Below, one piece after another: positions 49,647 to 55,425 of a stretch of 64,000 bases of DNA (positions are counted from its first letter, which is position 1; each line of letters starts with the position of its first letter). The notes under the pieces are model-generated. The model ran no database searches, had not been told where the DNA came from, and was given only the letters and a program-made list of their open reading frames with translations. Source of the DNA: Candidatus Heimdallarchaeota archaeon (GTDB taxonomy: Archaea; Asgardarchaeota; Heimdallarchaeia; Heimdallarchaeales; Kariarchaeaceae). The stretch is taken from NCBI GenBank assembly GCA_015523565.1, contig WAKA01000232.1:1-64000 (forward strand), written 5' to 3'. Position numbers and translations under genes: made by a program.

Positions 49647-50495
49647 TCAGATTTCATGAAGAACTGTAAATAGGTAGAATATTAAGAGTCCTATTGTGGT
49701 AGTTTCATTAATTGTTTTCAAATGGTTCTTCGATTCAAAAGAAGAAAACAGATGGATTAGGACATATACTATTGAAATCATTGTTACCGTATAGAAGTAA
49801 ACAATGTATCCTCCAAATAAATTGATGTTATAATATCCTGCAGGTACTCCAAATAAAATCGGAATCCCTGCAACCAATCCATAAACAAACCCCTGACTTT
49901 CATTTTTTTCTTCCCAGTTAATTAAAATGCCTCCCAAATATCCCTCAACAAGTTTATGAAATACAAAACTCAATCCTGGCAAAAATCTTATGACATCTGG
50001 TTCTGGCAACAGAAAATTTGATCCCATTATTATTCCTTCAGCAATGCTGTGAATTCCAACCCCAAATATCCATATCCAATGGATTGGAATTCTTTTTCCA
50101 TCATTGGTCCTAACAAGAAGAAGTAATCCTCCAAAAAAGATTATTGGCAATAAAACCCTTTTTGCAATATCTGTAGAATTTAATCCTATAAAACTTGAAA
50201 GAGAACCAAAATCATAAAACAGAAATAAAAGAAATCCTGTTCCTATTCCCTTCAATACAATATCTGGATTATCGCCCAATAATTTCCTGAAAACTCCTTT
50301 TTTGACTATGAAATAGGGGATAATAAAACCAAACATTATGGGTAATACACCCGTTGCAACAGCTGTAACCATTGCAAACCAGATGGGAAATGAAGGTTCT
50401 GATGGCGTTTCATGCGGAATATCTCCATGACCTAAAACTGGTACAACTGCTAACAATGCAATTGACAGAAATAAACAAGTTATTTCTTTTTTCAT
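49647..50495 (-). CDS. ZIP-family divalent metal transporter-like protein
   Basis: GIHSIAEG and FHKLVEG helix motifs; signal peptide followed by HGDIPHE. Confidence 0.75.
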   Translation of the reverse strand: MKKEITCLFLSIALLAVVPVLGHGDIPHETPSEPSFPIWFAMVTAVATGVLPIMFGFIIPYFIVKKGVFRKLLGDNPDIVLKGIGTGFLLFLFYDFGSLSSFIGLNSTDIAKRVLLPIIFFGGLLLLVRTNDGKRIPIHWIWIFGVGIHSIAEGIIMGSNFLLPEPDVIRFLPGLSFVFHKLVEGYLGGILINWEEKNESQGFVYGLVAGIPILFGVPAGYYNINLFGGYIVYFYTVTMISIVYVLIHLFSSFESKNHLKTINETTTIGLLIFYLFTVLHEI

Positions 50496-50596: not shown

Positions 50597-52141
50597 ATGA
50601 ATAAGTCAATTCTTTTGTTGCTCCTGATTTGTGTCTCTCTTGTTCCAAGTATCCATGCAAAGCCTATTCATTCACAAAAGAATTTACAGCTTGAAAGCGA
50701 TCAATATAGGCCAAATATTATCAAAGAAATAATTGGCAATATTACTTCTTTCCAAGTTAATTTTTCGTCAAATAGTGTCATTGACAATTATGACCTTCCC
50801 ACAAATGAAACTGTTTTTGATGTTCTTCCAATAAATGCAACTCATGTATGGTTTACAATTTTAGACAAGAACTCACTTTTTCTTCTCGATACCGCGAAAA
50901 AAGTTGTTTGGCAATATTCTTTCTCTAACAAGGTTTATCCTTTTAAAATTAAAAATGACAGTGATGGAAATATTTGGTTTACAGACTATGTATATTCTTT
51001 TCAGGACGAAAATACAAGCTTATGCATATTTTCTCCAACTAATCTTACTCTCACGATTTTTGAAATCAAGGAGAAGAATGTTGCTCCATTTGACTTATAC
51101 GTATCACCGACAAAAATATGGTACAGTCAATGGCTTGGAAATAAGATTGCCTATTTGGATTTGTTTTCCAAGAATTTTACTGAAATAGATATTTCATGTC
51201 AAGAAACTTGTGGACCATTGGGCATAGTCGAAAACAATGATGGATCTATCTGGTTTGTAGAATCTTATACTGACAATATCGTAAAATATGACCCACAGAG
51301 CAAATTGATTGTTAAATATCCCTTGGGTGAGGATTTTGTTGCTCCTGTTGGATTGGCAGTCGATTCAAATGGAAACTTTTGGACTGGTGCACATGGTGGA
51401 GATGCCATTGTGGAATTCTTCCCGCAAAATTCGAGTGCAAAAGGATATTATGTTCCCAAACCTCGGGAAGAAATAAAAATACGCCTTGCTGGAATAAACG
51501 ACCTGCATTTTGATACAAAAGGGAATCTTTGGGCAATTGAGCATTTCAAGGATTCTGTTGCTTATCTAGACATGAATTCTGGAACTATCATGGAATACAT
51601 TACTGATGGAATCGAACCAAATATACAGTTTGGAAAGCCTTGGCTTGATGATTTCTGGTTTGCACAATATAATTATGGACGTCTTTCCCATATCAAAAAT
51701 GAATCCAAATTTATTTTTAAAGTTGAAGTCCCACAATACGTATTTGAAATTGCTAAGGCTTCTTCTTTAAATATAAATTTCAAGGTTACATATGTTTCTG
51801 GACCATTAGATAAACTCAATCTTGAACCATTCGGAGCAGTTGTAAAAAGCGAACGATTCTCATATAAGGCAGGTCACTCCAATACAATAAAAATTGGTGA
51901 AACTGTCGAATTCAACATAAAAGTTACAGTAGACAATAATGCAAAAGTCCAAGAATATCAATACTTAATTGGTGTACAAAATCAATTGGTAAGGGCATTC
52001 CATACGATAAAATTCATTGTACATGAAAACTTCTTCCAAGCTGTTTTTTTGGATACCATTGTTGGTTATATTGCCTTTTTCATCTATGTTGCATACAAGC
52101 GAAAGATATGGCATAAATTTATGAGATTTGACTCCAATTGA
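50597..52141 (+). CDS. Surface Vgb (virginiamycin B lyase)-like beta-propeller with an Ig-like domain and C-terminal TM
   Basis: Repeats of P..I..D.DGN[IF]WF[TV]; signal peptide; C-terminal TM + basic residues. Confidence 0.8.
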   Translation: MNKSILLLLLICVSLVPSIHAKPIHSQKNLQLESDQYRPNIIKEIIGNITSFQVNFSSNSVIDNYDLPTNETVFDVLPINATHVWFTILDKNSLFLLDTAKKVVWQYSFSNKVYPFKIKNDSDGNIWFTDYVYSFQDENTSLCIFSPTNLTLTIFEIKEKNVAPFDLYVSPTKIWYSQWLGNKIAYLDLFSKNFTEIDISCQETCGPLGIVENNDGSIWFVESYTDNIVKYDPQSKLIVKYPLGEDFVAPVGLAVDSNGNFWTGAHGGDAIVEFFPQNSSAKGYYVPKPREEIKIRLAGINDLHFDTKGNLWAIEHFKDSVAYLDMNSGTIMEYITDGIEPNIQFGKPWLDDFWFAQYNYGRLSHIKNESKFIFKVEVPQYVFEIAKASSLNINFKVTYVSGPLDKLNLEPFGAVVKSERFSYKAGHSNTIKIGETVEFNIKVTVDNNAKVQEYQYLIGVQNQLVRAFHTIKFIVHENFFQAVFLDTIVGYIAFFIYVAYKRKIWHKFMRFDSN

Positions 52142-52856
52142 AAAACTTGGAATCCCTCAAACCACGGAAAAACTTAATTCTGAACTTTTCTCGCAAGTCT
52201 GTTGCATTTTCTTCTCTTCTAAGTTCAATTGTACCATCTATTACTGATTCAATTTTTGCTAACAGTGATTCATTGATGACTCCATGATCCAATACCAACA
52301 AACAGCTTTGATTACGTGATGAGACTCTTGCAGAAAGAGTTTGCAAAAAATCTATCAGTGCCCTTTCAGGTGAATATATTGCCAATAAGCTGAACGGGTT
52401 GATCACGATCCTCATGTCTTCAAATTGCTTGGAAATTCTGTTCAAATGAATCGACAGTTCTGTCAAATCTGATACTGTGTCCAAAAAATATGTCCCAGGT
52501 GCCCTGTCCTCTGGAATACCGCTTCTGTAAGAATAAAGATCTATTATTTGGAGTCTCTCATTTAAAATTGCCTCATTTACCGTCATTGTTGCATCATTGG
52601 ATACACTGCTCAATTCTTCAATCACTTGGCTTGCACCTTTATTCAATGTTACAACACAAGCCACTCCTCCATTTTCCATGATTTTGAGCAAAAAATCATC
52701 AATCAGGTATCTTCTTGTAAATGTTATGTCGGAATACAAAGAAATCGTTTTTCCTTTCATGTTTGGGAAAATGTAGTCCATAGAAAATTCTTCTGCCACA
52801 TAAGACAATCTGATAAATGGAAATTTAAGTAATTTCAAATATTTTGGAATAATCAT
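52119..52856 (-). CDS. KaiC/RAD55-like RecA-fold protein lacking Walker A
   Basis: RLQIIDLYS, DLTELS, DGTIELR and RIKFFRG match the family; the P-loop position reads YSDITFTRR. Confidence 0.7.
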   Translation of the reverse strand: MIIPKYLKLLKFPFIRLSYVAEEFSMDYIFPNMKGKTISLYSDITFTRRYLIDDFLLKIMENGGVACVVTLNKGASQVIEELSSVSNDATMTVNEAILNERLQIIDLYSYRSGIPEDRAPGTYFLDTVSDLTELSIHLNRISKQFEDMRIVINPFSLLAIYSPERALIDFLQTLSARVSSRNQSCLLVLDHGVINESLLAKIESVIDGTIELRREENATDLREKFRIKFFRGLRDSKFFNWSQIS

Positions 52857-52912: not shown

Positions 52913-53749
52913 TTGAAATATTATCATAACATGGCCAATCCTTTTGATACATTTCTTACCATTCTTGTTGCAATGCTACCATTTCTTTTTTTTGTGGCAT
53001 TTTTAGTGGTAAATCTCTATGTTGGCAAGAAATATACCAGTAAAAGACGTGAACTTGTCATTGAGCATATGGACAAAATCTTGCCTCATTATTCCAAAGA
53101 ATATAATGCAGTCGACCTAAAGCCAGAAGTGATTGAATTTAGATGTGTGCCCTCACGAAAAGGGATTGGTGTTCAAACCCTTAATTACACAATGATCAAC
53201 CAAACTTTTGGAACAAACGTTCTGTTGAACAAACTGATAAAAGGAAAGGAAAAGCTCTTCATTGGTGTTAAGTTCAGGGAGGGAAACATGAATATTGATC
53301 CCGCCTACCGATTTTATTTTGTTCCATATCGCAATAAAGGACTTATCCGTCGAAATTTCGATACATATGTACAAATGGATGATGTGCCTACTGAACGACC
53401 TGACGTCGATAAGCTATACATGATAAAAGCAAACAGACCAATTGAAATCAAGCATTTTGTCACTAACAAGGATTTTTTGGCAAAAGCAAAATCATTGGAG
53501 CCATACTTGGACTTGTTGTCAATTCAACCCGCCAAAGAAAAAACCGATCCCCATTTGCAAATGACATTTTCATTCAAACAGGATGAACTTGATATGCTTC
53601 CAAAATTCCTTGATTTCTTCTTCCTTGTTGCAAAACTTCATCATGAAAACAATGATACTATCAAAAAGCTGTCCTCATCCAAAAAGGTAAGGCAAGTCTC
53701 ATCAAAAACCAAATCTGCCAAACGGAAAGGAAAATCAAAGAAAAATTAA
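52913..53749 (+). CDS. Single-pass membrane protein, probable CCDC47/DUF1682-like
   Basis: TM helix ending NLYVGKK, followed by an alpha/beta domain whose motif order matches the CCDC47 cytosolic domain by eye; basic C-terminal tail. Confidence 0.5.
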   Translation: MKYYHNMANPFDTFLTILVAMLPFLFFVAFLVVNLYVGKKYTSKRRELVIEHMDKILPHYSKEYNAVDLKPEVIEFRCVPSRKGIGVQTLNYTMINQTFGTNVLLNKLIKGKEKLFIGVKFREGNMNIDPAYRFYFVPYRNKGLIRRNFDTYVQMDDVPTERPDVDKLYMIKANRPIEIKHFVTNKDFLAKAKSLEPYLDLLSIQPAKEKTDPHLQMTFSFKQDELDMLPKFLDFFFLVAKLHHENNDTIKKLSSSKKVRQVSSKTKSAKRKGKSKKN

Positions 53750-55425
53750 GTATGGTAAACTAATTCCACCCTTCTCTCTTCTAATTTCTTGATGCGTCTG
53801 GCTATCTCAGGGATAATGTCTGATGCGATTAGCCCATTTCCGAATTCTTTAGCAACTTCCTCTCCACATAGCCCCATCACGTAACATCCTAAGGCCGCTG
53901 CCATTAAGGGGTCTTTAATTACTGTCGTGAATGCACCAATGGTTCCAGCAAGAACATCTCCAGTTCCTCCCACCGTCATCCCCGGATGTCCTGTCATATT
54001 GTAAATTATCCTATGTCCATCCGTGATTATGTCTGTAGAACCCTTCAATACAAAAATAACCTCAAGGTCTCTTGCCTTTTCCATTAAAAACTGGATTAGT
54101 TCCTCTTTCTCACTTGGAATCTCTTCATGCAACATATGTCTAAGTTCAGCCCTATGGGGTGTCATGATTGCTTTTGTACCATTTAAGAGATTCAAATTGC
54201 CCCTGAAGGCTCTAATGGCATCTGCATCAAGTATCAATTGAATTGGTTCTTCCTTCATGTTCTTTATGAATTCCCTTACAAATTTGTATACTGGCTCCTT
54301 ATTTGAAAGCCCCATTCCCATTACAACGGAATCGTGCCTTTTAATGGCCAATTCCTTGAGAATCTTGATGTTTTTTGGAGAATGGCTCTGTGTTCTTACC
54401 TTAAATAAAAGTAAATCTTTTGTTTGGGATGCTAATATATCCCTTATCTTTTCAGGAATCACTATTCTGACAGTATCAATCCCAACCCGAAGTGCTGCAT
54501 TTCCACTTAAGAGAGGAGCGCCAGTATATTCGTCAGATCCGCCAATCACTAAAAGGCGCCCATTCATCCCTTTGTGGCTCTCTGGATCACGTTTCGGCCA
54601 ATGAGATAAAAATAATCCTGTGTTTGTAAAATATAGGTTTTCTTGAGGAATCCCAATGTCCAAAACTTCAGCCTCAATATTTGCTTTGACATGACCATGT
54701 TTCAGATATTGGAATGTATATGTGTAATTTGGTTGCAATGTTGGACCGTGCCACTCTCCTGTATTTGCATCAAGTCCTGAAGGAAAATCCAAAGCACAAA
54801 GAATCTTTTCTTGATTCTCTCTGAGAATTTCAGCCAATTTCTCCAAATATGAAAAAAATGGCTCTCTCACTTTTGATTTGAGGTTTAGTCCAAAAATTGC
54901 ATCAAGAATGACTTCTGCTTCCATTAGAATATCAACAAACTCGTCTTGATCAATTTGTGTCCACATTTCTTTCATTGGCAAATTTTCAGGAGTTCCCAAC
55001 ACCATCAGTCTGCTATAGACATTCTCCCCTACATTCCATAATGTTTGTTTTTTTGCTTCAGAAAGTTCTTTCCAATGGTCTATCATTCTTTGCATAACTT
55101 CTTTTGCCTCATTGCTCTTCATGCCCCTTGGATCCAGTAAAATCAGGCAAATGTCATGAGTTTGCATAAGCAAGTCAAATACTACTATTCCATCTCCTCC
55201 ATTATTGCCGCCAGAGATCAAAACCACTGAACGCTTGTTTTCAGCAACAATTGAAAAATGATCTGCAACAGCTCTTCCTGCACGTTCCATTAATTCTAAT
55301 GGAGTGATGCCTTTCAGATATTCCATGTACTCTATCCCTTGCATCTCTTCCCGTGAAATCGATTTTCGGGTCGGAAAGGGAAAGTCGAATTTGCTTTCCA
55401 ACATAAGACAATCTAAATATGTCAT
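53746..55425 (-). CDS. nnr: Bifunctional NAD(P)HX epimerase/dehydratase
   Basis: LMERAG, GNNGGDG, DAIFG, DFPSG, SHKG..G, DADA, TPH..E and GGTGDVLAG. Confidence 0.95.
   Translation of the reverse strand: MTYLDCLMLESKFDFPFPTRKSISREEMQGIEYMEYLKGITPLELMERAGRAVADHFSIVAENKRSVVLISGGNNGGDGIVVFDLLMQTHDICLILLDPRGMKSNEAKEVMQRMIDHWKELSEAKKQTLWNVGENVYSRLMVLGTPENLPMKEMWTQIDQDEFVDILMEAEVILDAIFGLNLKSKVREPFFSYLEKLAEILRENQEKILCALDFPSGLDANTGEWHGPTLQPNYTYTFQYLKHGHVKANIEAEVLDIGIPQENLYFTNTGLFLSHWPKRDPESHKGMNGRLLVIGGSDEYTGAPLLSGNAALRVGIDTVRIVIPEKIRDILASQTKDLLLFKVRTQSHSPKNIKILKELAIKRHDSVVMGMGLSNKEPVYKFVREFIKNMKEEPIQLILDADAIRAFRGNLNLLNGTKAIMTPHRAELRHMLHEEIPSEKEELIQFLMEKARDLEVIFVLKGSTDIITDGHRIIYNMTGHPGMTVGGTGDVLAGTIGAFTTVIKDPLMAAALGCYVMGLCGEEVAKEFGNGLIASDIIPEIARRIKKLEERRVELVYHT

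Follow-up and report, generated by a model that had tools for sequence, protein, structure and literature searches.

The protein encoded on the plus strand beside a divergent KaiC-like gene in a 64,000-nucleotide contig portion of a Candidatus Heimdallarchaeota archaeon (hereafter the window, meaning this whole stretch of DNA) is very probably a true homologue of the eukaryotic protein CCDC47. The archaeal CCDC47 homologue proposed in the earlier note was borne out by matches of the protein's relatives to the Pfam family PF07946 and the agreement of an AlphaFold2 model with CCDC47 structures in Foldseek searches. Eukaryotic CCDC47 (calumin; PF07946, formerly DUF1682; structure chains 7tm3_4, 7tut_4, 6w6l_7 and 9i78_4) is a subunit of the PAT complex and of the multipass and SND3 translocons. 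It acts as a ribosome-docking scaffold of the endoplasmic reticulum (ER) machinery for multi-pass membrane proteins and is, according to published papers, absent from prokaryotes (Sundaram et al.; PMC9630114, 2022). The presence of a conserved CCDC47 homologue, in single copy, in the class of archaea regarded as nearest to eukaryotes would place the origin of one ER-translocon scaffold before eukaryogenesis. Furthermore, with approximately 270 amino acids, no luminal domain and no Asterix, it would offer a minimal version for study, which could reveal the role of the CCDC47 core itself. It should be added that the family is not wholly new to databases: some relatives already carry the PF07946 tag, as does the precomputed annotation of a Candidatus Freyrarchaeum guaymaensis protein in nr (P0020), and the core fold occurs in bacteria too.

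The gene lies within a 278-codon open reading frame (ORF) at positions 52913..53749 of the plus strand, which is present in the ORF list of the window. The frame and the stop codon given for it previously stand, but the start needs correction. The TTG at 52913 is the earliest possible start and is situated 6 codons upstream of an ATG at 52931 (MANPFDT...); the N-termini of P0003 and P0004, its closest homologues (75% and 72% identity), align with this ATG. As the ATG matches the N-termini of homologues and the TTG is merely the first start codon, the protein was taken to have 272 amino acids, and the TTG is probably not used (Table 1). All sequence elements listed in the earlier note were recovered in the translation: VVNLYVGKKYTSKRR, IEFRCVPSR, NVLLNKLIKGKEKLFIGVKF, YRFYFVPYRNK, LYMIKAN, FLAKAKSLEPYLDLLSI, LQMTFSF, DMLPKFLDFFF and the basic tail.

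Table 1. Coordinates of the CCDC47-like gene, of the parts of its product and of the neighbouring genes in the window
Feature	Position	Strand	Details and evidence
Possible metal transporter	49647-50495	minus	no Pfam match; adjoins beta-propeller gene
Membrane-anchored beta-propeller protein	50597-52141	+	Vgb-lyase, SGL and Reg_prop Pfam matches
KaiC/RecA-like ATPase	52119-52856	minus	divergent, 74 nt upstream; PF06745, weak DUF7504
CDS, CCDC47-like protein	52931..53749	+	272 aa + stop; ORF, translation, N-termini of homologues, full-length family profile match
Single N-terminal transmembrane (TM) helix, predicted N-out	52952..53023	+	~residues 8-31; AlphaFold2 helix 4-53, charge pattern
Basic membrane-adjacent stretch GKKYTSKRR, helix continuing into the cytoplasm	53024..53089	+	conservation count on A3, AlphaFold2 model
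Predicted cytoplasmic alpha/beta globular domain, CCDC47/TtfA fold	53093..53578	+	residues 55-216
Long C-terminal helix with strongly basic tail	53588..53746	+	residues 220-268; model, structural alignments, tail statistics
NAD(P)H-hydrate epimerase/dehydratase (Nnr)	53746-55425	minus	convergent; stops overlap by 4 nt

The distribution of the gene was assessed with profiles of increasing depth. An exhaustive HMMER search with a profile of three close sequences matched 13 cluster representatives among 1.84 billion. The 16-sequence profile A2 found matches in 97 of the 400 genomes of the window's phylum; since intact homologues occur in these genomes, the ORF is not a product of chance. Within the window's class (families f1-f7), 73 of 82 genomes were matched, the window genome being excluded from this count, and outside the class 23 of 317; in the largest family, f20, the gene was nearly absent (1/135 genomes). 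The family profile search revealed the CCDC47-like gene as single-copy in the window genome, which, together with its presence in most genomes of the class, is as expected for a housekeeping gene. An alignment of 64 family members (A3) was built from extracted ORFs; all of them have 217-306 amino acids and one N-terminal hydrophobic helix, and the homologue search with A3 returned Asgard proteins only at E ≤ 10.

Searched alone, the window protein had no match in Pfam, NCBIfam or among PDB sequences, even at E ≤ 10, and the PF07946 model found nothing in the whole 3.57-Mb window genome. The sequence link to CCDC47 is therefore transitive, because the window protein itself lacks a direct match. 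When scanned singly against Pfam, 30 of the 64 family members matched PF07946 at E ≤ 0.01, the best at 9.5e-10; PF07946 was the only family to recur among the Pfam matches. One of the relatives, L006, comes from the same GTDB family and shares 37% identity with the window protein (BLASTP E 8e-51); it reached 37.9 bits (E 1.5e-9) against PF07946, the curated cut-off of which is 27.7, with its residues 14-195 aligned to profile positions 8-202. Members from family f3 cover PF07946 positions 8-316 of 326, including the C-terminal tail. The HMMER comparison with DUF1682 suggested in the earlier note was thus negative for the window protein alone but positive for its relatives. In a six-frame scan of the 400 genomes with PF07946, 40 genomes were matched, 13 of them above the cut-off, and nearly all matches fell at loci also found by the window's family profile. 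No PF07946 matches were obtained in 14 control prokaryotes. Searches of PDB sequences with the family profiles A2, A3 and A4 (hmmsearch) gave noise only and reached no CCDC47 chain, and phmmer with L006 against PDB gave nothing. Towards the K/E-rich end of the PF07946 model, composition could account for part of the matching; as aligned to the Pfam profile, the matches above the cut-off span 180-300 collinear residues in many members.

The fold of the protein was predicted with AlphaFold2. With only 3 sequences the prediction failed (pLDDT 33), so the 64-sequence alignment A3 was needed, which gave a pLDDT of 93 and a pTM of 0.85. The model consists of a helix (residues 4-53), an alpha/beta domain (55-216) and a long helix (220-268), towards the basic end of which the pLDDT drops to 57-69. 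Foldseek against PDB at E ≤ 1e-3 returned three matches only: 7tm3_4 (E 1.5e-10), 9i78_4 and 6w6l_7, which are chains of the rabbit multipass, the Chaetomium SND3 and the human TMCO1 translocons, respectively. That these chains are CCDC47 was checked indirectly, through the aligned residue ranges of two of them, which fit CCDC47; the structural comparison called for in the earlier note thus came out in favour of CCDC47. In 9i78_4 the aligned range begins at residue 76, where the CCDC47 chain docked by the authors of this SND3-translocon structure also starts (PMC12572126). The aligned range in 7tm3_4 begins at residue 135, at the edge of the transmembrane helix of human CCDC47.

Moreover, a fold search in the ESM Atlas aligned 245 residues with a TM score of 0.71 and an rmsd of 4.0 Å to an arthropod cluster that was 100% PF07946, and in the feature search of the Atlas no named family ranked ahead of CCDC47. 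In an independent fold search only CCDC47 chains stood on top, the next unrelated fold being 10 Z units lower. Full-length superposition gave an rmsd of approximately 9 Å, because the transmembrane and tail helices are angled differently relative to the domain. One could suppose that the resemblance to CCDC47 arose by chance or convergence from a transmembrane helix and charged, low-complexity sequence; the missing direct match of the window protein and the sequence identity of only 6-12% in the structural alignments would fit such a reading. Set against the collinear Pfam matches above the cut-off in many members and against the distance between CCDC47 and the next fold, it is close to refuted.

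The core fold is nevertheless not confined to CCDC47. Atlas clusters labelled mostly bacterial have the same core (TM 0.62-0.70). Pfam DUF3137, weakly matched by two family members, and a ‘mini-CCDC47’ linked to CstA are more remote relatives that share the core and have a single transmembrane helix; the CstA-linked forms have short tails, unlike the window protein. One such member (genome G092, locus L057) was found by the window's family profile (E 2.3e-4) approximately 1.2 kb from CstA. Trehalose monomycolate transport factor A (TtfA, PDB 6T84) of Mycobacteriales also has the core fold in common with the window protein, at 4% identity in the structural alignment and with no detected sequence similarity. 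TtfA works with the lipid exporter MmpL3. Our literature search returned no paper joining CCDC47 with TtfA, nor CCDC47 with Asgard archaea.

These relatives allow for a different function on the same ancestry: the protein would have its origin and fold in common with CCDC47, and would act, in the manner of TtfA or of the CstA-linked forms, as a cytoplasm-facing accessory subunit that binds a particular membrane transporter or lipid exporter and stabilises or regulates it, away from the translocon. This is the main rival reading, which we consider possible but rather unlikely. No CstA was detected in the window genome, which is about 90% complete, and no transporter gene is found among the conserved neighbours. 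The CstA-linked member L057 had no PF07946 match, whereas Heimdall-type members match the model over its full length. The long basic C-terminal helix, a CCDC47 feature, is lacking in the TtfA match, which ends at model residue 247. The window gene was also considered as a ‘mini’ form of a CstA operon and rejected as such, the genome being without CstA and the neighbours being the KaiC-like ATPase and Nnr genes.

As to its architecture, CCDC47 has a published layout of an N-terminal transmembrane helix, a cytosolic globular domain and a positively charged C-terminal coiled coil (‘latch helices’). The archaeal protein has the same order of parts, i.e. a predicted N-out transmembrane helix followed by a cytoplasmic alpha/beta domain and a basic C-terminal helix. 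Within the transmembrane helix, 68% of family members share the proline at residue 17; after the helix, 98% have G32, and N occupies position 36 in 73% (conservation counts on A3). The net charge changes from -1 ahead of the helix to +3 behind it, in the window protein and in the family median alike, and so the bulk of the protein should face the cytoplasm; the charge pattern predicts an N-out helix with a cytoplasmic domain, in line with the positive-inside rule, across the family.

The tail has approximately 56 residues with a net charge of +13 over the last 30. The structural alignments reach model residue 272, corresponding to chain residue 433-434; as the aligned part of the tail ends at about chain residue 434, the C-terminal helix is, going by the model, probably the counterpart of the connecting helix and the first latch helix of CCDC47. 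A single long helix with a basic end was seen in the model and the structural alignment, and a second latch helix was not evident; the archaeal protein probably lacks it together with the exit-tunnel tip. Further differences from CCDC47 are the absence of a signal peptide and of the acidic luminal domain, the short N-terminus, with some 7 residues ahead of the transmembrane helix, and the size (272 amino acids vs ~480 in the animal protein, 486 in the arthropod cluster). The membrane in question would be the plasma membrane in the archaeon and is the ER in eukaryotes.

Taken as a whole, the best explanation in our opinion, to which we give even chances, is a pared-down archaeal CCDC47-family protein acting as a scaffold or gate at the site where SecY and the ribosome meet. 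Docking at the ribosome-SecY translocon by a cytoplasm-facing scaffold through the basic helix is argued from analogy with CCDC47, and taken separately we place it slightly below an even chance. The protein would be positioned on the cytoplasmic side of the membrane, beside the SecYE-beta channel, with its basic C-terminal helix touching rRNA and protein close to the exit tunnel of the ribosome, and it would aid the insertion of multi-pass membrane proteins as a scaffold or gate, possibly in cooperation with one of the two Oxa1/TMCO1-type insertases of the genome. The tail after the core varies among families: it has 49-77 basic residues in the window's family f1, mostly about 92 residues rich in K, R and E in f3 (one of 61), about 25 acidic residues in f7, and about 33 and 56 residues in the shorter-tailed and longer-tailed paralogues (1 and 2) of f5. 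Given the short or acidic tails of sister clades, tail-mediated ribosome docking cannot be universal in the family.

The search for further translocon components gave a mixed picture. The window genome encodes one SecY and two EMC3/TMCO1-family proteins. Asterix (PF03669) had no match in the window genome and none above the cut-off in the 400 genomes, small membrane proteins being hard to detect, so that a diverged partner may have escaped the search; 7 weak matches were obtained in these genomes, five of which contained in-frame stops. Since no Asterix was found, we do not call the gene part of a PAT complex, and the existence of such a complex, of which the earlier note proposed a prokaryotic precursor, is not shown. 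Recurrent small ORFs in the neighbourhood were examined as Asterix candidates and discarded as spurious, lying antisense inside the Nnr gene. TMEM147 (PF09767) gave no match, yet the model matched no control genome either, which makes this test powerless. Co-folding of SecY (A5) with the CCDC47-like protein (A3) scored 0.00 and gave no answer, so that it counts neither for nor against binding. A proto-multipass translocon in the Heimdall group, an accessory scaffold docked to the ribosome at SecY and formed by the tailed CCDC47 homologue with an Oxa1/TMCO1-type insertase and an Asterix-like membrane partner, is in our judgement unlikely; if true, this part of the ER machinery would predate eukaryotes and would have been inherited vertically.

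By context, the gene was not linked to secY or to any ribosomal or insertase gene. The neighbours of the CCDC47-like gene vary between clades, and none of them suggests a translocon. The related-locus search with A2 found no conserved stretch around the loci, and that with A1 found one ‘uncultured archaeon’ contig. The most frequent arrangements were a convergent Nnr gene (36 loci), a directly upstream Ras/Rab-family GTPase gene in families f3 and f5 (28 loci, e.g. L008:2387-2947, minus), in most cases on the strand of the CCDC47-like gene, and a divergent KaiC-like gene upstream in 16 loci of five families (f1, f2, f4, f7 and f29). Such recurrence would fit a membrane-tethered adaptor recruiting to the membrane the ATPase or GTPase encoded next to it, KaiC-like here and Ras/Rab-like in sister families. 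This reading strikes us as very improbable, as the neighbour changes with the clade and is on the opposite strand in the window, and a gene order shared within a single class may simply have been inherited. The Ras/Rab-like GTPase neighbour is absent at the window locus, and the Walker-A region of the KaiC-like ATPase reads only MKGKT there.

A few minor observations were made on the way. The SecY of the window genome (G000, contig C207; L081:1438-2904, minus) carries a Gly/Gln-rich insertion, GTTDAGGGQQQQVPTGG, and its reading frame stays open for another 41 codons before the conserved start. In family f5, genus g14, genomes such as G062, G074 and G071 have 2-3 SecY paralogues together with a pair of CCDC47-like paralogues, of which one is short-tailed and the other has a tail of approximately 56 amino acids. 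In family f5 a JAB/MPN-domain gene is located just upstream of the CCDC47-like gene (L040:2278-2874, +). Finally, in two unplaced Asgard-like contigs (L079:8636-12759 and L080:1-5844) the CCDC47-like gene (P0017 and P0015, respectively) directly adjoins a type-I PKS/FAS-like gene encoding approximately 3,130-3,160 amino acids with KS, AT, KR, DH and ACPS Pfam matches, and genes for a RuBisCO large subunit and an Arf/Ras GTPase are found nearby.
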